Of a stretch of DNA of 64,000 nucleotides, positions 14,689 to 23,422 are shown in pieces (within the stretch, counting starts at the first letter, position 1; each line of letters begins with the position of its first letter). The DNA comes from Candidatus Omnitrophota bacterium. Its GTDB lineage: Bacteria > Omnitrophota > Gorgyraeia > Tantalellales > Tantalellaceae. Location of the stretch: the NCBI GenBank assembly GCA_014728075.1, contig WJMG01000091.1, positions 13,181 through 77,180 on the forward strand, written 5' to 3'. The position numbers were made by a program, and so were the translations under genes. The notes below the pieces were generated by a model. It searched no databases. It worked only from the letters and a program-made list of their open reading frames with translations, and had not been told where the DNA came from.

Positions 14689-14716
14689 TTGACACCTCAT
14701 TTTTTCCCTGTATACT
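14689..14716 (+). promoter_or_regulatory. Candidate sigma70-type promoter (TTGACA-N16-TATACT) upstream of the signalling operon
   Basis: TTGACA lies at 14689-14694 and TATACT at 14711-14716. The predicted TSS (about 14723) falls inside the first copy of the repeated TCAAAATACCTTG motif. Confidence 0.35.
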
Positions 14717-14963
14717 CAAAATACCTTGATAATTTATAACAAATCACATCAATAGCTACCTGTAAATATAGAAAAGCGGTGAATTGTATAAAAAGTAACG
14801 GCTTTTATAATTCTTGAACAAGGACTTTATAATGATAATTTATATGCTGCATATCTTCAGGCATATGCTGGAACATGTTGATATCCAAAGATATAGAAAA
14901 ACGGGTTCAGGGAACTCCGATCAAAATACCTTGTAAATTCAAATCGAATAAAGGGGTGGGAGA

Positions 14964-15149
14964 ATGATAAGTACGGTTATGACTGTCGAGGAACTCGCTA
15001 AATACCTCAAAATGAAAGTGGTTACGATCTATAAGCACGCTCAGGAAGGGAGAATACCGGGTTTTAAGGTAGGGTCCAAATGGCGCTTTAAAAAAGAAAC
15101 CATAGATGAATGGATCAGCCGGCAGGAAAGGCGTACCGGCCAATTTTAA
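14964..15149 (+). CDS. Small excisionase-family (MerR-superfamily, HTH_17) DNA-binding protein
   Basis: 61 aa with MTVEELAKYLKMKVVTIYKHAQEGRIPGFKVGSKWRFKKETIDEWI, which matches the excisionase/XIS HTH pattern. A GGGGTGGGAG RBS lies upstream. Confidence 0.7.
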   Translation: MISTVMTVEELAKYLKMKVVTIYKHAQEGRIPGFKVGSKWRFKKETIDEWISRQERRTGQF

Positions 15150-15162
15150 AGAAAGGATTCCC

Positions 15163-16536
15163 ATGGATTTTAATATCGCAGAAATAGATAATAGGAATAC
15201 TCCTAGAGTTCAATTAAATCTTCCTATTAAAATAAACAACAATAAGGGAGAAACAATAGATTTTAATGAATTAGGAATGGGATTTCGTACGCTAAATAAG
15301 ATTGAAAAAAGGGATTACAATGCAGAAATTAAACTAGATAGTGGGTGCATTGATTTTAATATTGAGATAATTTGGTCAAAGAAGGATAAAAAGTCAAATA
15401 CATACATCCATGGTGCAAAATTTTCAGAAATAAACCCTGTTAAGTTACAAAAAATAAGAAAAAAAGTTATTATCACAAAGTTGAAAAACACTATTAAATC
15501 TTTTTCTCTAAAAGCAGATAAGAAAGACTTAATGAGATTTTCAAAAGAAGTCTTAGCTTATTTGTCTTCCTTATATCATCTCTCAGAAAAACTAGATTCT
15601 GGCAATATGAGAGTTAAAAATGCATCAGAATTTTTAAAGACTAGAACAGACAAGGTGATGGAGGAAGCTAAAATTTTTCAAGATTCGATTAATAATAAAC
15701 TATTGGAGAAAAAAGCCAAAAAAGATTTTCGTGACCTGACGAGTTCTTGGGCCTATAAAGGGTTTATTGTTAAGAGATCTTTTGATAAGCCTCGAGGGTA
15801 TCCAGGTGATTTTAGGATAATGGAATATATTTATGACGAGATTTTAATATCAAAAGGGATTGGCCAGTGTTTTGATGTGTATTTCCAGAATAATGAATAT
15901 GCAGAAGCTGTTAGGAAAAGAAAAGACTGGATGAGGAGATATTTGGAAAATTTCATATCGGAAAAAAATAAGAAAAACATAAATATTTTAAATATAGCTT
16001 GTGGATCAAATCGAGAAATCAGAGAACTTTTGCATAATAAACCTTATGTTTATACACATCTTTCTGAAAAAGGAAAGAAAGTGATTTTGAATTTATTAGA
16101 TCAAGATAATGAAGCATTAGCCTTTTCTAACTTAAATCTAAAGTCTTTTAATCGTTTCGTTGACATAAGATTGCTTGATAATGATATTATGGATTTAACA
16201 AAAGAAAATGAAGTTCAAATTAATCAAAGCATGGATTTGATTTATACAATTGGATTGGCAGATTATTTACCAGACAGAATCTTGGGAAAGTTGCTCAATA
16301 GATGTGTGGATAATTTTTTAAAAAAAGATGGGAAGTTAGTTATTGCTCATAAAGATATTTCTCGTTATAGACCTATGCCTCCAAACTGGTTTTGTGATTG
16401 GAATTTTTATTCAAGAAATAAAGATGATTTAAATAATCTACTAAAAAAACATGTTGGATTTGATACTGTTGATGTTCAGTATTACAGAGATGATACTGGA
16501 ATTATTATTTTCGCAGAGTTGACAAAAATAAAATGA
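15163..16536 (+). CDS. PilZ-domain :: class I SAM-dependent methyltransferase fusion protein (putative c-di-GMP-responsive methyltransferase)
   Basis: The N-terminus has RNTPR (RxxxR) followed 19 aa later by DFNELG (D-x-N-x-x-G, a variant of PilZ DxSxxG). The C-terminus has methyltransferase motif I (ILNIACGSNREI), an acidic beta2 (LNLLDQDNE) and post I/III motifs (IRLLDNDIMDL; MDLIYTIGLADYL). ATG 15163 has a GAAAGGA RBS. The gene is markedly AT-rich. Confidence 0.6.
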   Translation: MDFNIAEIDNRNTPRVQLNLPIKINNNKGETIDFNELGMGFRTLNKIEKRDYNAEIKLDSGCIDFNIEIIWSKKDKKSNTYIHGAKFSEINPVKLQKIRKKVIITKLKNTIKSFSLKADKKDLMRFSKEVLAYLSSLYHLSEKLDSGNMRVKNASEFLKTRTDKVMEEAKIFQDSINNKLLEKKAKKDFRDLTSSWAYKGFIVKRSFDKPRGYPGDFRIMEYIYDEILISKGIGQCFDVYFQNNEYAEAVRKRKDWMRRYLENFISEKNKKNINILNIACGSNREIRELLHNKPYVYTHLSEKGKKVILNLLDQDNEALAFSNLNLKSFNRFVDIRLLDNDIMDLTKENEVQINQSMDLIYTIGLADYLPDRILGKLLNRCVDNFLKKDGKLVIAHKDISRYRPMPPNWFCDWNFYSRNKDDLNNLLKKHVGFDTVDVQYYRDDTGIIIFAELTKIK

Positions 16537-18692
16537 ATTTTCTAGCCTTTACTGGATTAATTAACTTTATTACCTGTATCGCTTTAGGTCTTTTTGTTCT
16601 TTTGAAAGGATTTAAGTCTCGCCAAAATATCACATACTTTTTTTTAAATGTAAGTGTTGCTGTTTTTAGCTTGGGGTATTTTCTCTGGCAAATAACATCC
16701 GATCTTTCAGCTGTTCAATGGTTTAAGTTATTAGTGGTAGGTATTATTTTAATTAATCAAGCATATCTTATTTTTGTGTTTACTTTTTTAAATATAATTA
16801 AACGCCATAAAGTACCATTGACCATATGTTTTGCATTGAACTTATTTTATATCTTTGCAAATTACAAAGGATGGTTGTACCAAGATTTTCTAAATAAATT
16901 CGAATTAGGTATTTGGCCGATTCCAACAAATTTATTTGTGTCATATCTTATTTTTTGGGTTGTTCAATGTGTTTATGGGTTTATTTATTTATTTATTAAT
17001 GCAAATAAAGGCTCAACGAGAAGAAGATTGCAAATAAGGTATTTCACAATAGCGGCAGTTGTTGGATTTCTGGGAGGCGCGACTAATTGGCCTATTTGGT
17101 TCAATATATATTTTCCTCCGTACGGTAATATCTTAATAAGTTTATATATCGCAATTGTTGCTTATGCAATTGTTAGGCATCAATTGATGGATATTAGCGT
17201 AATTGTAAAGAAAACGATAGTTTTTGCCGGTTTGTTTATAGCTTCGTACGCGGTTTTTGCAAGTTTTGCTTATATCGGTCTAGGCGTTATAGAAAACTTT
17301 ACTAAAAATAGATGGATAGCAATGCTGCCTTCGGTATTTGTTGTAGTTGTTATGTTGCGGCCGTTAGAGAGTTTTTTGAGGAATGTTACCGATAAATTCC
17401 TCTTTCAAAAAAAATACGATTATAAGACATTGCTCAAGACCTTTGCCGACGATGTCCTGATGGTCCTTGACATGAACGAACTTGTCAACCTTACCGTTAA
17501 TAAATTAACCGAGATCGTAAAGCTGGAGAACGCCACGATCTTGCTGAGCTCGGGGGAAGACGGCGATTTTAGCATAGTGGCCAGTTCCGGAATGGAGGAC
17601 CCCGAATATGAAATAACTTCAGGTTCCGGGATAAGCGATCTGCTTATGACAAAACCCGATTATCTTCTTTTTGAGGACTCCTCCGATACCGATAACTATG
17701 ACAATGAAGTCAGGCGTGCTATGAAAGACCTTCAGGCCCGGCTTCTTATCCCGCTTGTCCACAGGAACCAGGTAGTGGGGCTGCTTACCCTTGGAAAGAA
17801 GAAGTCTGATGAGGAATTCAGCCAGGACGACATCGATATCCTTCTTCCCATATCAAGGACGCTTTCCATAGCCATCGCCAACGCCAGGCTGTTCGAGCAG
17901 CTATCCGAAGCCCAGGCACAGGCGGCGCAGAGGGAGAAAATGGCCGTTATAGGCACGCTTTCGGCCGGGATCAATCACGAGATCTGCAATCCCCTGGGTA
18001 TCGCCAGGGGGCAGTGCGAGATGTTCCTTCTTAACCTTAAAGAGGGCCTTTACGACGCTAAAGACCCCGAAGAGCTTCTTTTGAAAGCCCGGGAGATAAT
18101 GGAGAAGGTCATAACCGAAACCGACCGGGCGACCGTTATTACACGCAAGCTTTCCTCCTTCGCCAAACCGGCAAAGGGGAACCTCCGGGAAGGCGTAGTC
18201 GTGGCCGAGGAACTGAGAGAGGTGATTTCGCTTCTCGAGCATGATCTCAGGCTGGATAATATAGAGATCGTAGAGGATTTCGGCGGCGATGTCCCGCCGA
18301 TAGTCGCCGACAAAAAACAGCTTCAGGAGATATTTTTCAACCTGATAAGGAACGCGGCCCAGTCGATCAAGGCGGAGGGCGCGATAATACTGCGGACCCG
18401 GTCTGACAGGGGCAGGGTTTCTGTCGAGATAGAGGATACGGGAGAGGGAATAAGTGAAAGCAACCTTAAGCGCATATTCGATCCGTTCTTCACGACAAAA
18501 GACCCGGGTAAAGGCACCGGTCTCGGGCTTTTTATCGTCAAGCAGATCGTTGAGAGGAACAACGGCCGAATATCGGTTGCCAGCGAATCCGGGAAGGGGA
18601 CCGTGTTCTCGGTCGTATTCGGTTCCGTTAAGGGCGCAGGCCTTTTTGCCGGCGGAGAGGACGGCGGGAAAAGAAAGGTAGCGGTTAAATGA
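16533..18692 (+). CDS. Sensor histidine kinase with N-terminal 7TM sensor module, GAF domain, HisKA and HATPase_c
   Basis: About 230 aa of polytopic N-terminus paralogous to the HK at 20828-22432. A GAF-like middle domain. The H-box INHEICNPLGI and the G-boxes DTGEGI...GTGLGL are present. The gene overlaps the upstream stop (ATGA). Confidence 0.85.
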   Translation: MNFLAFTGLINFITCIALGLFVLLKGFKSRQNITYFFLNVSVAVFSLGYFLWQITSDLSAVQWFKLLVVGIILINQAYLIFVFTFLNIIKRHKVPLTICFALNLFYIFANYKGWLYQDFLNKFELGIWPIPTNLFVSYLIFWVVQCVYGFIYLFINANKGSTRRRLQIRYFTIAAVVGFLGGATNWPIWFNIYFPPYGNILISLYIAIVAYAIVRHQLMDISVIVKKTIVFAGLFIASYAVFASFAYIGLGVIENFTKNRWIAMLPSVFVVVVMLRPLESFLRNVTDKFLFQKKYDYKTLLKTFADDVLMVLDMNELVNLTVNKLTEIVKLENATILLSSGEDGDFSIVASSGMEDPEYEITSGSGISDLLMTKPDYLLFEDSSDTDNYDNEVRRAMKDLQARLLIPLVHRNQVVGLLTLGKKKSDEEFSQDDIDILLPISRTLSIAIANARLFEQLSEAQAQAAQREKMAVIGTLSAGINHEICNPLGIARGQCEMFLLNLKEGLYDAKDPEELLLKAREIMEKVITETDRATVITRKLSSFAKPAKGNLREGVVVAEELREVISLLEHDLRLDNIEIVEDFGGDVPPIVADKKQLQEIFFNLIRNAAQSIKAEGAIILRTRSDRGRVSVEIEDTGEGISESNLKRIFDPFFTTKDPGKGTGLGLFIVKQIVERNNGRISVASESGKGTVFSVVFGSVKGAGLFAGGEDGGKRKVAVK

Positions 18693-19495
18693 ACATTCCG
18701 TACGGAGCCGGAGAGGGAGGCAGGAAAGCGATCCTCTCTATAGATGACGAAACCAGTTTTACGGAACTGCTCAAGGGGTATTTTGAGCTGAGAGGCTACA
18801 GGGTCGATGTCACCAACGACGGTTCCAAGGGGCTTGAGCTCGCGAAAAGGAACCGGTACGATGTTGCGCTTCTCGACCTTAAAATGGAAGGCATGGACGG
18901 GGACGAGGTCATGCGGAAGATGAGGCGGATAAATCCCCGTACAAGGACTATATTCATAACCGCTTACAACGATTCGGGCAAGACCCGGAAGAGGCTTCTT
19001 GACGAAGGGGCCTTCGCGTTTGTGGAAAAACCGATCTCTAGCCTTAAAGACCTGGAGGAAACGGTCAGGCGGGCCGTTGAACCTCCCACAAAGAAAGGGG
19101 CTGACGCTATGCTTAAGATCCTGGTCGTGGACGACGAGATAGATATCTGTGATTTCGTGAAAAATTTTTTCAAGGACAGGAATTTCGAGGTTTTCGTGGC
19201 CCACGACGGCAGGGAGGCGCTCAACCTGGTCGAGTCCAGGAGACCCGATATAGTGCTCCTGGATGTCAAGATGCCCGTCATGGACGGCATGCAGGCCCTG
19301 AGGGAGATAAAGAAAGTGAACAGGAAAAGCCGGATAATAATGATCACGGCGGTGAACGATACCGACAGGATAGAGGAAGCGAGGCGACTCGGTGTGTACG
19401 AGTACATAACCAAGCCTCTTTTGCTGGAACAGCTGGAAAGGACCGTGCTGACCGTGGCCGAAGAGATAAAAATGGAGGAGACAGAGGGTGAATAA
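18689..19495 (+). CDS. Response regulator with two tandem receiver (REC) domains and no output domain
   Basis: REC1 has ILSIDDETS...VALLDLKMEGMDG and REC2 has KILVVDDEIDI...IVLLDVKMPVMDG. The gene overlaps the HK stop (ATGA). Confidence 0.85.
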   Translation: MNIPYGAGEGGRKAILSIDDETSFTELLKGYFELRGYRVDVTNDGSKGLELAKRNRYDVALLDLKMEGMDGDEVMRKMRRINPRTRTIFITAYNDSGKTRKRLLDEGAFAFVEKPISSLKDLEETVRRAVEPPTKKGADAMLKILVVDDEIDICDFVKNFFKDRNFEVFVAHDGREALNLVESRRPDIVLLDVKMPVMDGMQALREIKKVNRKSRIIMITAVNDTDRIEEARRLGVYEYITKPLLLEQLERTVLTVAEEIKMEETEGE

Positions 19496-20837
19496 CTCTA
19501 CGAAAAACGACAATTTCGCGCAGGAGAATAACTGGCTTAAGCTGCAGGACTGGATATCGGAAAAGATAAGGAGCTGCGACGGCGGCCTTATCCCCATGGA
19601 CAGCGACCTCGGCAGCAGGAGAGAAGAACCGGAGCTTGATTACCAGTACTTTCTCGAGAACGCGTCCAGGACCATGATACGCTTCAAGAAGGTGGAGCAC
19701 CTGATAAAGATGATCGTGCGCACCATCGACGAACAGGTAAAGGTCACTCATACGGCCATGCTGGTCCTCAGCAGGGATAAAGACTGCTTTAACCTTATCG
19801 ATTCCAAAGGCGTGGAGGGGATGAAGATACCCGTGGGGTTTATCCGCCTGACCTTTACCAACCCGCTGGTGAAATTATTCAACGAGAGGCGGAATTTCAC
19901 GATCTCCGAAACCGGGGCCGTAAGCTACAAGGGTCTGCTGGATTCGCTTACGAGGAACGAAAAAGTGGCCGGTAACACCGGGCTGTCGGAGCTTGTGAAA
20001 CTTTCGATAAAGCAGATGGAGCTTCTCAAGGCCACCCTGTGCGTCCCGATATATTACAAAAAGGACCTTCTCGGTGTCTTTGTCCTGGGGAAAAAGCTTT
20101 CCAACATGAGCTTCTGCAGGCAGGAGATAAGTTTTTTCGGAACGCTCGCCAACGATGTCGCCATGGCCATTTCGAACGCCAATCTCATACAGGACCTGCA
20201 GGAGAAGATATACGAGGTCCACGAGCTTTACGAAAGGGAGCACCGTATATTCATCAATACTTCGATCTCGCTTGCGGCCGCTATAGACGCCAGGGACCCG
20301 TATACCCACGGCCATACCGAACGAGTGACCCAGTACGCGCTTTCGATATCCGAGGAGCTTGACGATCTGCCGGAAGCACAGGCTTACCTGAACTTCAGGG
20401 AAACCCTGCACATAGCGGGCCTCCTCCACGATGTGGGGAAGATAGGAGTACCGGACAGTATATTGAACAAGGAGGACCAGCTTACTTCAGAGGAGTACGA
20501 ACGGATAAAAGAACACTCGCTTACAGGCGCGGCGATACTTTATCCGATAAGCGAACTGAAAGGCGTGTGCAACGAGGTGCGGGCGCATCACGAAAGATAC
20601 GACGGGGAAGGCTATCCTGACGGGCTGAAAGCCGACGAGATACCTTTCGTCGCGCGGATAATCGCCGTCGCGGACACCTTTGACGCCGTAACCAGCGACA
20701 GGCCGTACAGGAGGAAAAAACCGGCCGAGACGGCCGTCAGGATAATAGAGGAAAATTCGGGAACTCAGTTCGACCCGGTAGTTGTAAGCGCTTTTCTGCT
20801 GGCATATAAAAAAGGCAAGTTCAAGAATTATGTCTGA
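19488..20837 (+). CDS. HD-GYP domain c-di-GMP phosphodiesterase with N-terminal GAF-like domain
   Basis: HGHTERV...HDVGKIGVP...HHERYDGEGYPDGL (HD plus GYP motifs) are present. The GTG start overlaps the upstream gene end. Confidence 0.85.
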   Translation: MNNSTKNDNFAQENNWLKLQDWISEKIRSCDGGLIPMDSDLGSRREEPELDYQYFLENASRTMIRFKKVEHLIKMIVRTIDEQVKVTHTAMLVLSRDKDCFNLIDSKGVEGMKIPVGFIRLTFTNPLVKLFNERRNFTISETGAVSYKGLLDSLTRNEKVAGNTGLSELVKLSIKQMELLKATLCVPIYYKKDLLGVFVLGKKLSNMSFCRQEISFFGTLANDVAMAISNANLIQDLQEKIYEVHELYEREHRIFINTSISLAAAIDARDPYTHGHTERVTQYALSISEELDDLPEAQAYLNFRETLHIAGLLHDVGKIGVPDSILNKEDQLTSEEYERIKEHSLTGAAILYPISELKGVCNEVRAHHERYDGEGYPDGLKADEIPFVARIIAVADTFDAVTSDRPYRRKKPAETAVRIIEENSGTQFDPVVVSAFLLAYKKGKFKNYV

Positions 20838-22432
20838 TCTCCGGCAGGCAGCTCTATCCTGAAAGAGGCGCCTTCCTTTGTGCTTGAGACTTTTACCGAG
20901 CCCTCGTGTTTCTCTATAATACCGTGCACTACGCTTAAGCCTAATCCGGAACCTTCGTCCTTCCTGGAGAAGAAGGGGTCGAATATCCTCTTCAGGTCTT
21001 CCTTTTCTATCCCCGTGCCGGTATCGGATATTTCAACGAACACTTTCGTTCCTTCTTTCCCGGTCCTTATTACGATCGAACCCGGCGGGCGGATCGCGTC
21101 TTTCGCGTTAAGGAGAAGGTTGAGGAAAGCCTGTTTCAATTGGACCGGATCGGCGTTTATGCGGGGAAGGTCGGACAGGTGCCTTTCAACAGATATGTTC
21201 TTTCTGAGAAAATCGTTGTTCAGGAACTCGCAAGTCTCGTTTATCAAAAGATTAACATCCGTTCTGCGTATATTGAGGCTCGCCGGTTTTGAGAATTCAA
21301 GCAATTGCCTGACGATGTTGTTGATCTTGTCGACTTCGGCCGGGACTATCCGGCAGAACTTCTCTAAAAAAACGGGGTCGTTGTGCCGGGCGGGCAAAAA
21401 CTCGGAAAAGGTCTTTATCGAGGTTAAGGGGTTCTTTATCTCATGCGCCATGCCGGCGGCAAGGGTGGATATGGCCTTGAGCTTTTCTGCTCGCTGGAGT
21501 TCATTTCTCAACTTTATATTTTCTTCGTCGATTTGCGAGATGGATCCATGAAAGAAATATTTGTCTAAAAGATATTGAATTTTGTTTTTTATAGGATTAA
21601 ATAAAAAAAGGAAAAAACATAAAATAAACAAAGAGAAAGAAATAGAATGATATTTATAGTAATTTCTAAATATATGTTCGAGAATAAAGATGGTCGAAAT
21701 GTATAGTGCTAAAAGAGTTGAAACGATAACGCTATATATAACAGTTTTTTTAAAAACTATATTAATGTCGAGTAATTTGTGTGCAATAATGGTATAAGCA
21801 AGTATTCCGATATAAATTGTTAAAAGTAAATTTAAGTAAGGGGGGATAGGGATTTTAAAAAAAAGAAAATAATTAGTTGAACCGCCTAGATATCCTGCTA
21901 TCAATGCAATGACAATATATTTTATTTTATTTTTATTTGCTGAAGATGCTTTACGATAACATTTTAATGGTGTCACAATTGATAACATAGCATAAGTGAA
22001 AAAATATGCTAAAAAAACATAATAAATTGGGCCTGGAATTCCCCAGTATGGAAAAATGTCTACAGAACGCACGCCTGATATGAAATATGGCGTAAAAATT
22101 AATAGTGCGATAGTTGTTCCGAATAAATATCCTATAAAAAGCAATTTATCTCGTTTAATCTTTAAGAGAGTAGACACGAAATGAAAAGTAGTAATAGGTA
22201 TAAATACAGCGCCTAAATGTAGGAATCGAAACCAGAATAAAACTTTAATAGGGATTGTTGATAAGGGCCAAAAGATATATCCAAAACTCCAAATTGCTAT
22301 GAAGACATTCATTATTGAAAAGCGAAAATTAATTCTTGAATGGGGGTTTTTAGATAATACATAGACGGCTAAGATAAGTGCACCTATGAAATTTATTGCT
22401 CCAGATAGTGAAAAAAAATGTAAATAATTCAT
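20828..22432 (-). CDS. Sensor histidine kinase (7TM sensor module, HisKA, HATPase_c)
   Basis: The N-terminal polytopic domain is paralogous to the 16533 HK (compare AHKLLDINIVFKKT with RHQLMDISVIVKKT). The H-box MAHEIKNPLTSI and the ATPase G-boxes DTGTGI...GSGLGL are present. Confidence 0.85.
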   Translation of the reverse strand: MNYLHFFSLSGAINFIGALILAVYVLSKNPHSRINFRFSIMNVFIAIWSFGYIFWPLSTIPIKVLFWFRFLHLGAVFIPITTFHFVSTLLKIKRDKLLFIGYLFGTTIALLIFTPYFISGVRSVDIFPYWGIPGPIYYVFLAYFFTYAMLSIVTPLKCYRKASSANKNKIKYIVIALIAGYLGGSTNYFLFFKIPIPPYLNLLLTIYIGILAYTIIAHKLLDINIVFKKTVIYSVIVSTLLALYISTIFILEHIFRNYYKYHSISFSLFILCFFLFLFNPIKNKIQYLLDKYFFHGSISQIDEENIKLRNELQRAEKLKAISTLAAGMAHEIKNPLTSIKTFSEFLPARHNDPVFLEKFCRIVPAEVDKINNIVRQLLEFSKPASLNIRRTDVNLLINETCEFLNNDFLRKNISVERHLSDLPRINADPVQLKQAFLNLLLNAKDAIRPPGSIVIRTGKEGTKVFVEISDTGTGIEKEDLKRIFDPFFSRKDEGSGLGLSVVHGIIEKHEGSVKVSSTKEGASFRIELPAGDQT

Positions 22433-22443
22433 ATCATGGAAGA

Positions 22444-22803
22444 TTATTTTAATAAATTTCTTGTTTTTTCAAAAACTTCTGATTTGTTGAAAGGCTTGGA
22501 AATATATTCTACAGCTCCTAATTTCATTGCTTTTGTTGCCATTTCAACACTTTGATATCCCGTGATTATTATCACTTTCAGTTCCGGGGCTATTTTCCTG
22601 ATCTCCTCTAAAGTCTCAAGCCCGTTACGGACGGGCATTTTTATATCTAGAAGCAGGCCGTCGTAAGGGGCTTCTTTGATCTTGTTTACGGCTTCCGCGC
22701 CGTTATTCGCGAAATCAAGCTCGTAATCGTTTTCAAGGATAAGGTTCAGCGACTCGCGCACACCTTCCTCGTCGTCGCATATCAGTATCCGTTTTTTCTG
22801 CAT
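22444..22803 (-). CDS. Single-domain CheY-like response regulator receiver
   Basis: 119 aa with ILICDDEEGV...LLLDIKMPVRNGLE...KPF. It lies 11 nt upstream of the - strand HK. Confidence 0.85.
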   Translation of the reverse strand: MQKKRILICDDEEGVRESLNLILENDYELDFANNGAEAVNKIKEAPYDGLLLDIKMPVRNGLETLEEIRKIAPELKVIIITGYQSVEMATKAMKLGAVEYISKPFNKSEVFEKTRNLLK

Positions 22804-22870
22804 TTTATTCTCCTCCTGTTATTGATTTTTGTATGGGCGCAGCGTAATGACCCGGGGCTGTGCTTATCAA

Positions 22871-23422
22871 CTATAAAGCCGGCGGAGATATTACGCAGAT
22901 CGCTTCGGCCTTTGACCTGCCCTTGTTGGTGAATGTATGGGGGAGCGAGGCGTCAAAATACAGGCTGTCGCCGGTCTTAAGCGAATAATCCGATTTTCCC
23001 ACTACGGCCGTCATCGCCCCCGAAAGTATGTAAATAAATTTCTCCACCCCGGTCCTGTTCTCTTCAGGCTGGGTCTTGCCCCCGGGATCGAGCCGTATGA
23101 CCAGGGGCATTATCTTTTTGTCCATGGTCTTGGTGACGAGCAGTTCATAGCGGGCCTTGGGCGAATGCACGAAATGCTCTGTTCTTCTTTTCCTGGGTAC
23201 GCTTTCAACTGTCTTTGATTCTTCCTCGATGCCGGCGTAAAGTTCGGCCAGCGATGTGTTCAGTGCTTTACAGATGTTCTGGTGGGCTTCCAGCGTTCCC
23301 GTCATCTTGTTGTTTTCCATTCTGCTGAGAGTCGCAAGCGCGACACCGCTTTTCTCCGACAGTTCGTTAAGGGTTATCCCGCGGTCTTTTCTCAACTGAC
23401 GCAACTTTTTGCCTATTTTCAT
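22871..23422 (-). CDS. XRE-family HTH plus cupin-domain transcriptional regulator
   Basis: The N-terminus has LRQLRKDRGITLNELSEKSGVALATLSRMEN (an XRE HTH). The C-terminus has a cupin fold (GDSLYFDASLPHTFTN). Confidence 0.8.
   Translation of the reverse strand: MKIGKKLRQLRKDRGITLNELSEKSGVALATLSRMENNKMTGTLEAHQNICKALNTSLAELYAGIEEESKTVESVPRKRRTEHFVHSPKARYELLVTKTMDKKIMPLVIRLDPGGKTQPEENRTGVEKFIYILSGAMTAVVGKSDYSLKTGDSLYFDASLPHTFTNKGRSKAEAICVISPPAL

Follow-up and report, generated by a model that had tools for sequence, protein, structure and literature searches.

Five contiguous genes transcribed in the same direction constitute a real operon of an uncultivated Omnitrophota bacterium, and we propose, with a probability of about 0.4, that the encoded proteins form a closed signalling loop resembling the Phc and Rpf quorum-sensing systems. 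The gene arrangement is far beyond chance, because a 7TM(-GAF) kinase gene lies directly 3' of the methyltransferase gene in 43 of 61 related loci. The locus was analysed within a window of 64,000 nucleotides (the whole stretch of DNA studied), and comprises the following features:

14689..14716, + strand: predicted sigma-70-type promoter, TTGACA / 16-nt spacer / TATACT (11 of 12 consensus positions)
14716..14933, + strand: leader, with two exact 13-nt copies of TCAAAATACCTTG
14964-15149, + strand: gene 1 (ORF), HTH_17 protein
15150..17330, + strand: low-GC3 tract 1, covering the whole of gene 2 and codons 1 to about 265 of HK1
15163-16536, + strand: gene 2 (ORF), PilZ-methyltransferase
16533-18692, + strand: gene 3 (ORF), 7TM-GAF histidine kinase HK1
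18689-19495, + strand: gene 4 (ORF), double receiver
19488-20837, + strand: gene 5 (ORF), GAF-HD-GYP protein
20722..20736, - strand: terminator-like GC hairpin and T-run (6 GC pairs, then GTTTTTT), for the HK2 unit
20828..22432, - strand: HK2, HisKA_7TM histidine kinase without GAF (Pfam)
21577..22608, - strand: low-GC3 tract 2, covering codons 1 to about 285 of HK2 and the final third of the receiver gene upstream of it
22444..22803, - strand: single-domain receiver upstream of HK2 (Response_reg, 104 bits)
22871..23422, - strand: XRE-type HTH plus cupin regulator (Cupin_2, HTH_3)

The junctions were read directly. Gene 1 ends with a TAA stop at 15149 and gene 2 starts at the ATG at 15163, with AAGGA ahead of it; the gap is therefore 13 nt and not the +14 nt given in an earlier note on this DNA. 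A gene 2 start at the in-frame ATG at 15106 was discarded, since it would overlap gene 1 and has no homolog support. The ATGA start/stop overlaps at 16533 and 18689 that the earlier note had described were both seen in the sequence, as was the 8-nt overlap between genes 4 and 5, where gene 5 starts with the GTG at 19488 and has a GGAGGAG Shine-Dalgarno sequence. This tight packing bears out the coupled single transcript proposed there, and the five genes are probably co-transcribed; internal terminators had been named as a possible refutation, and none that was convincing was found within the five-gene unit. The terminator-like hairpin assigned to the HK2 unit lies inside gene 5, at its 3' end.

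The predicted promoter lies about 250 nt 5' of gene 1. In the syntenic related locus L002 the leader sequence has otherwise diverged, yet both the -35 and -10 elements and a TTTTCCC block in the spacer are kept. One copy of TCAAAATACCTTG (14716-14728) abuts the -10 element and the other (14921-14933) is located immediately 5' of the gene 1 ribosome-binding site. Allowing up to two mismatches, this sequence has 7 matches in the window versus 1.4 expected, and the pair is a possible operator. No Rfam element was found in the leader.

Pfam analysis upheld all five domain assignments made earlier. Gene 1 codes for a 61-aa HTH_17 (excisionase/MerR-like) DNA-binding protein (63 bits) that shares 84% identity with its L002 ortholog. 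Among the related loci compared, this HTH is restricted to the closest Omnitrophota relatives, and in three proteins (P0015, P0069, and P0179) an HTH of this type is fused N-terminally to the PilZ-methyltransferase. The protein scores 73.3 bits against the NCBIfam MADS1 model (cut-off 80), and PADLOC detected mad1 at 26 bits and nothing else of that system. An assignment to MADS anti-phage defence was rejected, as the MAD1 HTH falls under the cut-off and no further MADS component is present.

Gene 2 encodes a PilZ beta-barrel (aa ~10-100), a helical bundle (~92-267) and a methyltransferase domain (~272-457). Its AlphaFold model (pLDDT 92) shows the same succession, with a six-strand barrel followed by a helix in the PilZ part and a Rossmann methyltransferase at the end. 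The protein of the window scores 21.2-21.3 bits against Pfam PilZ (PF07238; cut-off 22.5) and matches no Pfam methyltransferase family. Among its homologs, 54 of 60 match PilZ and about half match Methyltransf_20/31/25, distant ones exceeding the curated thresholds with PilZ scores of 35-40 bits; the family profile also finds YpfA and Alg44 through their PilZ domains (E ~1e-3). Both domains are thus secure at the family level. Of the PilZ motifs, RxxxR is present as RNTPR (residues 11-15), R11 and R15 being invariant in 60 homologs. The second motif, [D/N]hSxxG, reads DFNELG: D, h and G are present and Asn replaces the Ser, a change common to L001 and L002, while the family consensus is DxSExG with an invariant G38. 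Binding of c-di-GMP by this PilZ domain is uncertain because Asn replaces the Ser of the motif and the Pfam score falls short of the threshold.

The C-terminal domain has the hallmarks of a class I SAM methyltransferase, namely the Rossmann fold, a glycine-rich motif I (LNIACGSNRE) and an acidic motif II (LLDQDNEAL), together with the family motifs KPRGYPGDF and WFCDWNF. It is predicted to be a SAM-dependent methyltransferase of the small-molecule type. DNA-methyltransferase motifs are absent from gene 2, and fold ranking found the domain unrelated to CheR and placed protein N-terminal methyltransferases among the weaker matches. Many gene 2 homologs carry in JGI a PhcB KO-derived name, which is broadly applied. 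We found no other cis-fused PilZ-methyltransferase in the literature searched.

HK1 consists of a HisKA_7TM sensor (aa 1 to about 278), a GAF domain (aa 312-450) and HisKA/HATPase_c domains, with the H-box histidine (INHEICNPLG) and the HATPase N and G boxes in place; its membrane part has seven hydrophobic segments and no large loops. Gene 4 codes for two receivers (aa 15-130 and 144-252; Response_reg 185 bits) without an output domain. The translation retains the DD, D, T and K phospho-acceptor residues in both, as expected for the output-less dual receiver of the earlier note; however, the protein arose in its lineage by fusion of two single-receiver genes, which L002 carries separately. 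Gene 5 combines a GAF-like N-terminal domain (partial Pfam GAF) with an HD-GYP domain (aa 263-432; HD_5 145 bits) in which the H, HD, H, HHE, D and GYP residues are all intact. Its GHTERV, LLHDVGK, EHS, AHHERYDGEGYP and ADTFDA segments align with 5z7c, 4mcw and 4r8z (E-values of 8e-41 for 5z7c and 4e-35 for 4mcw). The substrate may be c-di-GMP or 3'3'-cGAMP; the best solved relative is a 3'3'-cGAMP-specific enzyme. As previously stated for cyclases, no GGDEF motif, and no EAL motif either, occurs in any frame of the 64-kb window.

Beyond the operon, the conserved locus runs on along the - strand to position 23422; another 7TM kinase, a single receiver and the HTH-cupin regulator are encoded there. 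HK2 is convergent to the operon, its gene overlapping the gene 5 stop by 10 nt, and the 7TM parts of HK1 and HK2 share 29% identity. Orthologs of HK2 occupy the same position in L002, L004 and L068, where they are also adjoined by the receiver, and in 11 related loci the module is flanked by an HTH-cupin ortholog. In HK2, the N-terminal membrane sensor varies far more than the cytoplasmic core.

Conservation was assessed in 80 related loci from several phyla. The methyltransferase and 7TM(-GAF) kinase pair, kept across phyla and usually accompanied by a receiver, is the conserved core, whereas the HTH, the HD-GYP and the second receiver are clade-specific additions. Conservation of the neighbourhood, which had been expected for all five genes, thus holds for the pair and not for the full set; likewise, the expected co-occurrence of the PilZ-methyltransferase was found with the 7TM kinase, but an HD-GYP is present in only 11 of the 48 loci for which sufficient sequence was available. 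The pair seen in Spirochaetota, and at many further loci, is only a PilZ-less methyltransferase with a 7TM-GAF kinase, and no receiver or HD-GYP is nearby. REC-PilZ-methyltransferase fusions and kinase-receiver-methyltransferase gene orders also occur among the relatives, and fused REC-HD-GYP proteins were found in L042, L045 and L056. The gene order is the same, and so is its chromosomal position, in L001 and L002. At E <= 1e-30 the gene 2 family counts 1,253 uncharacterised protein clusters, and 231 relatives were found among species-representative genomes.

In the proposed loop, the methyltransferase would convert a common metabolite to a hydrophobic, membrane-partitioning product, as PhcB does in making 3-hydroxy fatty-acid methyl esters. 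HK1, the neighbouring kinase, would use its 7TM domain to sense this product inside the membrane, whether it came from the own cell or from neighbours, and would then phosphorylate the output-less receivers. These may modulate the GAF-HD-GYP enzyme and so shift the c-di-GMP level, as RpfC-RpfG do for DSF, and this level could feed back on signal synthesis via the PilZ domain, in a direction that we infer. The HTH_17 partner possibly ties the state of the loop to operon transcription. According to the earlier note, the module appears to sense and degrade c-di-GMP while gating a methyltransferase; this takes the enzyme to be the output, and a signal-synthase/receptor pair like PhcB-PhcS fits at least as well, because of the near-obligatory coupling to the kinase and the lack of other biosynthetic genes nearby. 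The REC-PilZ-methyltransferase fusions and the kinase-receiver-methyltransferase orders fit equally well a methyltransferase that is the regulated output.

Two further observations bear on a synthase/receptor unit. The PilZ-methyltransferase is the most diverged protein of the locus; the 7TM domain of HK1 is not unusually diverged (about 0.6 versus L002), so that a joint diversification of synthase and receptor, as in pherotypes, is not evident. In addition, GC3 changes sharply within a single gene, being 0.10-0.38 in tract 1 versus 0.6-0.75 further downstream within the HK1 gene. Since such a mosaic is also seen in 7TM kinases that do not adjoin a methyltransferase, it is not specific evidence for such a unit.

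A linear pathway, which we hold to be somewhat unlikely, would account for the same genes as follows: HK1, blind to the methylated product, senses an unrelated membrane or environmental cue and acts through the receivers on the HD-GYP enzyme, which lowers c-di-GMP made elsewhere, and PilZ-controlled methylation of a small molecule or lipid is the output. A PilZ domain on the enzyme with an HD-GYP in the same operon, a window without GGDEF, and the fusions and gene orders that put the methyltransferase downstream of phosphotransfer are all consistent with it. However, the PilZ-less pairs of the Spirochaetota type would leave the output enzyme without a visible connection to the kinase, the HD-GYP is found in a minority of loci, and the near-constant partnering with one type of membrane-embedded sensor would be left unexplained. 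The tight adjacency of methyltransferase and kinase would also be expected if the enzyme methylated the kinase or the receivers and tuned their sensitivity in a CheR-like manner, with c-di-GMP as modulator. That a PilZ protein can control a protein methyltransferase is known from MapZ and CheR1 (bioRxiv 10.1101/814665), and the weaker fold matches to protein N-terminal methyltransferases point the same way; we regard such adaptation as very improbable.

The low GC3 (0.2-0.3) of gene 2 and of the 7TM-coding part of the HK1 gene, together with the methyltransferase and the excisionase-type HTH (73 bits against MADS1, cut-off 80), might suggest an acquired mobile or defence island placed by chance next to resident two-component genes. 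This explanation is scarcely credible and is largely refuted by synteny, as L001 and L002 keep gene order and position. Moreover, no integrase, flanking tRNA or other defence component was found, gene 2 lacks DNA-methyltransferase motifs, the methyltransferase-kinase pairing spans phyla, and the low-GC tract stops inside an intact kinase gene.

The arrangement matches no described system, in agreement with the earlier view that it is not a textbook one. The Phc operon of Ralstonia (phcB-phcS-phcR-phcQ) codes for a lone SAM methyltransferase, a membrane kinase and receiver proteins without DNA-binding domains (PMC8578825, PMC6989110), and the present operon resembles it in gene order, with methyltransferase, membrane kinase and DNA-binding-free receivers in succession (PMC8578825). 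PhcB, too, has N-terminal sequence that matters for its function and is not part of the methyltransferase domain; the conserved R22 of its N-terminus likewise falls outside that domain. Unlike in Phc, the methyltransferase carries a PilZ domain, the kinase sensor is HisKA_7TM plus GAF, the proposed output is an HD-GYP enzyme instead of the LysR regulator PhcA, and the kinase-like domain of PhcR is missing. No LysR-type gene is present in the conserved locus, the regulators of which are of the HTH_17 and XRE-cupin types. The Phc signal is a 3-hydroxy fatty-acid methyl ester, and Phc is regarded as genus-specific, whereas the hosts here are uncultivated Omnitrophota and other phyla.

The Rpf/DSF system of Xanthomonas (RpfF-RpfC-RpfG) has a self-made lipid-like signal, a polytopic-membrane kinase and a c-di-GMP-lowering HD-GYP output, and its signalling proteins feed back post-translationally on the synthase. 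In contrast to it (see also PMC6989110), the candidate synthase is a methyltransferase with no RpfF-type crotonase in the locus, HK1 lacks the REC and HPt domains of a hybrid kinase, and the receivers and the HD-GYP, which has a GAF and not a REC domain, are separate proteins. Membership in Rpf/DSF was rejected, there being no RpfF-type synthase and no REC-HD-GYP fusion in the window.

Partial likenesses were found elsewhere. MapZ of Pseudomonas aeruginosa, a PilZ protein through which c-di-GMP controls the SAM methyltransferase CheR1 (bioRxiv 10.1101/814665), shares the pairing of PilZ with a SAM-dependent methyltransferase, but it acts in trans on a chemotaxis protein methyltransferase, whereas the PilZ of gene 2 is fused in cis to a predicted small-molecule enzyme. 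Gene 5 aligns with PmGH (4mcw) and V-cGAP3 (5z7c) across the HD-GYP, with complete metal ligands and GYP, and in the case of PmGH into the preceding GAF-like domain; its operon context differs from both. HK1 (residues 49-695) aligns at 137 bits with PrsK (XrtA/PEP-CTERM kinase, TIGR02916), which has the same multi-pass N-terminus, GAF and kinase, but this is far under the 300-bit equivalog cut-off, and no PrsR, XrtA or PEP-CTERM genes are present in the locus. In ComQXPA/agr pherotype loci a signal-maturation gene adjoins that of a kinase with a highly variable N-terminal membrane sensor and a much less variable cytoplasmic core (PMC4008528). The variable sensor of HK2 and the diverged PilZ-methyltransferase recall this pattern; those loci, however, are peptide pheromone systems of unrelated proteins, and the 7TM domain of HK1 is not hypervariable.

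A bolder proposal, unlikely in our estimation, is that the PilZ-methyltransferase and 7TM-kinase pairs represent a large, phylum-spanning and unrecognised class of Phc-like small-molecule autoinducer systems, wired to c-di-GMP through the PilZ of the synthase and an HD-GYP output. Uncultivated lineages such as Omnitrophota would then gain a cell-cell or autocrine signalling language, and PhcB of Ralstonia could belong to the gene 2 family, with an N-terminus derived from PilZ. If the methyltransferase makes the HK1 ligand, the Phc type would be a branch of a widespread family and no peculiarity of Ralstonia, and extracellular small-molecule signalling would be coupled directly and modularly to the c-di-GMP network. 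A cis-fused PilZ-methyltransferase would add a new type of enzyme to the c-di-GMP effectors, and even with the methyltransferase as output, c-di-GMP-gated small-molecule methylation would still be new biochemistry. Because Omnitrophota are uncultivated, and many of them ultra-small or host-associated, a tractable five-protein module that can be rebuilt in vitro would offer a way into their signalling.

The five plus-strand genes at 14964–20837 were re-read from their ORF coordinates, and all five were found where the earlier note had placed them. Together with the convergent unit downstream, the locus has the following features (window positions):

14689–14716, predicted sigma-70-like promoter, TTGACA / 16 nt / TATACT, 11/12 matches
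14964–15149, plus strand, gene 1, HTH_17 protein (61 aa)
from 15163, plus strand, gene 2, PilZ domain and SAM methyltransferase (PilZ-MT)
gene 3, plus strand, 7TM-GAF histidine kinase (HK1)
18689–19495, plus strand, gene 4, dual receiver (268 aa)
19488–20837, plus strand, gene 5, GAF-HD-GYP protein
20828–22432, minus strand, second 7TM kinase (HK2)
to 23422, minus strand, receiver and XRE-cupin regulator genes

Direct reading of the junctions confirmed the ATGA overlaps at 16533 and 18689 and the 8-nt overlap between genes 4 and 5, gene 5 starting with the GTG at 19488; the spacing between genes 1 and 2, previously given as 14 nt, is really 13 nt, from the TAA of gene 1 to the ATG of gene 2 at 15163. 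This ATG is preceded by AAGGA, and the gene 5 GTG by a GGAGGAG Shine-Dalgarno sequence. No convincing plus-strand terminator was found inside the five-gene unit, and promoter-like matches were not enriched in the AT-rich gene 2 (23 matches versus 19.1 ± 4.6 in shuffled sequence). In the syntenic locus L002 the leader keeps the −35 element, a TTTTCCC spacer block and the −10 element of the predicted promoter, the remaining leader being diverged. Neither the 324-nt leader nor the rest of the 14–24 kb region gave an Rfam match to a riboswitch or other RNA element at E ≤ 1. An exact 13-nt repeat, TCAAAATACCTTG, is present directly after the predicted −10 element (14716–14728) and again just 5′ of the gene 1 ribosome-binding site (14921–14933), with near-copies in two other intergenic regions (23449 and 26419); the seven matches compare with 1.4 expected, and the repeat could act as an operator or a common regulatory motif.

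Several features of strand organization were also recorded. Gene 5 and HK2 are convergent, and they overlap by 10 nt, stop codons included, within window 20722–20837. The sole good terminator-like hairpin for the minus-strand unit sits within the 3′ end of gene 5, so that the convergent transcripts would overlap. A 424-aa minus-strand ORF (18323–19597) lies antisense to the HK1 3′ end, gene 4 and the beginning of gene 5; it probably arises as a side effect of the coding strand being rich in purines. Across the window (1–64000) nearly all long ORFs lie on the plus strand and cumulative GC skew climbs steadily throughout, the main exception to this bias in the ORF list being the minus-strand unit at 20828–23422.

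Profile searches agreed with the domains assigned earlier to genes 1, 3, 4 and 5: Pfam HTH_17 in gene 1; HisKA_7TM, GAF, HisKA and HATPase_c in HK1; two receivers in gene 4; and HD_5 with a partial GAF in gene 5. In the translations, both gene 4 receivers retain the acidic pair, the phospho-acceptor Asp, the Thr and the Lys, and both HK1 and HK2 retain the H-box. The HK1 sensor consists of seven hydrophobic segments without large loops and lies entirely in the membrane. The gene 5 HD-GYP domain retains the GYP motif and every metal ligand, and over its full length it can be aligned with three active enzymes, V-cGAP3 (5z7c), PmGH (4mcw) and PA4781 (4r8z). Since its best match is a 3′3′-cGAMP-specific enzyme, c-di-GMP is a presumed substrate of gene 5. 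The reported absence of a GGDEF cyclase was upheld, no GGDEF or EAL motif being found in any frame of the whole 64-kb window. Gene 1 scored 73 bits against the NCBIfam MAD1 model, whose cut-off is 80 bits; this probably reflects generic HTH_17 similarity, because other components of the methylation-associated defence system (MADS) are absent beside it.

The product of gene 2 is 100% identical to P0001 (GF408_08395), encoded on a 91-kb contig of a Candidatus Omnitrophica MAG, in the protein search. Its PilZ score (21.2 bits) is slightly under the Pfam cut-off, and profile searches returned no methyltransferase family match for the window's own protein. At the family level both assignments of the earlier note were secured: of 60 full-length homologs, 54 hit the PilZ model and roughly half a methyltransferase model (Methyltransf_20/31/25), the Thermodesulfobacteriota and Nitrospirota homologs passing curated thresholds for PilZ and methyltransferase alike. 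The RxxxR arginines, R11 and R15, do not vary among the homologs, nor does the glycine in the second PilZ motif, and both PilZ motifs are present in 50 of the 81 methyltransferase proteins of related loci. The AlphaFold model (pLDDT 92, pTM 0.88) comprises a beta-barrel, a long helical bundle and a Rossmann domain. The window protein and both syntenic orthologs depart from the refined motif [D/N]hSxxG in having Asn for Ser, so that c-di-GMP binding cannot be taken for granted in this clade.

The family of gene 2 is large and uncharacterised: GTDB species representatives contain 231 relatives, and at E ≤ 1e-30 the family comprises 1,253 clusters (50% identity). All matches listed in two large protein searches, the second seeded from a deltaproteobacterial member, came from MAGs or metagenomes. 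Among cultured organisms the only relatives found were methyltransferases encoded on rhizobial plasmids, remote at about 25% identity, and tblastn against plasmids and chromids reached this branch only; around 130 plasmid records, mostly of Rhizobium, carry such a homolog. In the two rhizobial neighbourhoods inspected (L081, 3688–8099, and L082, 3765–7125), the PilZ-less homolog divergently adjoins a GGDEF-EAL protein whose N-terminus is a polytopic membrane region; in L081 a PAS-GGDEF gene follows. These two loci hint at a general association of the methyltransferase family with c-di-GMP signalling proteins embedded in the membrane. We found no description of PilZ-methyltransferase fusions or of this operon in the literature, where HisKA_7TM was found only as a catalogued sensor domain.

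The window's own domains were used as queries in a survey of 80 fetched loci. Of the 61 loci with 2.6 kb or more of downstream sequence, 43 have a histidine kinase gene immediately after the methyltransferase, mostly at intergenic distances of −11 to +9 nt; 34 of these kinases carry 7TM, and 32 carry 7TM plus GAF. The order kinase, receiver, methyltransferase occurs in several other loci. Receivers lie within 5 kb downstream in 31 of 48 loci, and 11 of the 48 have an HD-GYP gene no more than 6.5 kb away, the HD-GYP being accompanied by GAF as in the window, fused to a receiver (L042, L045, L056) or joined to 7TM-GAF (L018). On these comparisons the ancient core is the methyltransferase–kinase pair, not the HD-GYP gene. 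The upstream HTH_17 gene is restricted to the nearest Omnitrophota relatives; in P0015, P0069 and P0179 HTH_17 is fused to the PilZ-MT N-terminus, in the order of genes 1 and 2, and receiver-PilZ-MT fusions occur in P0056 and L039. L001 and L002 are orthologous loci, since the window's flanking genes are common to both. The arrangement in L002 is complete, including the convergent 7TM kinase, its receiver and the XRE-cupin regulator, which accompanies the module in 11 loci. The five genes thus stand as one co-directional unit, but the conserved locus reaches further than the operon described earlier, to about 23422. The window's dual receiver corresponds to two single-receiver genes in L002 (13522–14287), which indicates a recent gene fusion; receivers are likewise separate genes in L004, L010 and L015. 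The phospholipid genes pgsA and pgpA, which lie upstream, were discarded as functional partners, since they adjoin the locus only in the two syntenic genomes.

The GC content at third codon positions (GC3) was mosaic within genes. Gene 2 and HK1 up to codon ~265 (window 15150–17330) have values of 0.10–0.38, as against 0.6–0.75 for the remainder of HK1, for the genes downstream and for the window as a whole. In HK2 the switch comes at codon ~285, and the low-GC tract extends into the last third of the adjoining receiver gene (21577–22608). In round figures, GC3 is ~0.2–0.3 in the methyltransferase gene and in the 5′ segments that encode 7TM in both kinases, versus ~0.65 in the rest of the same genes and the genome, and each kinase switches where its membrane domain ends. 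A general effect of membrane proteins does not account for this, because GC3 is normal (0.54–0.62) in the window's other polytopic membrane proteins. Within-gene mosaics recur in independent MAGs (L002, L004, L006, L014, L040, L052, L053, L055 and L074). In the 22 related loci with usable background, GC3 was depleted in the methyltransferase (median −0.10, p about 9e-6) and in the 7TM segment (p = 0.0025); no depletion was seen for the cytoplasmic part of that kinase (p = 0.14), and the methyltransferase and 7TM departures correlated (rho 0.87). Co-transfer of synthase and sensor as one low-GC tract was weakened as an explanation, since the same drop occurs in 7TM kinases without an adjacent methyltransferase. 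Orthologs have diverged to 44–63% identity, so that synonymous sites must be saturated and the low GC3 cannot be an old relic; it reflects either recent recurrent import (replacement) or active maintenance (selection for AT-rich codons).

Compared with L002, no other protein of the locus has diverged as much as PilZ-MT (0.44), and the sensor of HK2 (0.17–0.5) is far more diverged than its kinase core (0.5–0.87); divergence of the HK1 sensor is not unusual. In addition, 7TM and cytoplasmic kinase parts are shuffled between loci. This divergence resembles the pattern of variable sensor and conserved core of ComP (PMC4008528); any co-diversification of synthase and sensor is hypothetical. Genomes close enough for a pherotype test, with near-identical loci and swapped methyltransferase or 7TM parts, were not found: the closest were a non-self gene 2 homolog (46% identical) and an HD-GYP relative in a metagenome collection (43%). 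With that 46% homolog as best match to gene 2, no donor for the low-GC3 sequence has been sampled.

The gene 2–HK1 pair matches the layout of synthase–receptor pairs for hydrophobic autoinducers: a lone small-molecule methyltransferase, without other biosynthetic neighbours, is coupled to a membrane-embedded sensor kinase, and receivers without DNA-binding domains come next. The closest case is phcB-phcS-phcR-phcQ of Ralstonia (PMC8578825). There, too, an N-terminal region of the synthase that lies outside the methyltransferase domain is important for function, and a receiver protein appears to regulate the enzyme (PMC6989110). In its HD-GYP output the locus parallels RpfC-RpfG of DSF signalling. 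Putative homology to PhcB itself is suggested only by JGI KO names, which are applied broadly; the JGI-labelled outliers P0176 and P0177 proved to be ordinary family members. Given this layout we favour, with a probability of roughly 0.4, a closed loop in which the methyltransferase product would be sensed by the 7TM kinase, the kinase would act via the receivers on GAF-HD-GYP, and the altered c-di-GMP would feed back on the methyltransferase via PilZ, the HTH_17 partner possibly coupling the state of the loop to transcription. Such a loop would need no locally encoded cyclase.

The main competing explanation, which follows the logic of the earlier note, makes the methyltransferase a c-di-GMP- or phospho-regulated output. 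It accommodates the receiver-PilZ-MT fusions well but not the many loci with only a PilZ-less methyltransferase and a kinase, and we consider it somewhat less likely than the closed loop. A CheR-like role in adaptation is unlikely, as is a mobile or defence island: there is no integrase, the sole tRNA is at 31.6 kb, and PADLOC gave generic domain matches only. We regard the locus as a module combining two-component and c-di-GMP signalling that resembles the Phc and Rpf quorum-sensing systems.
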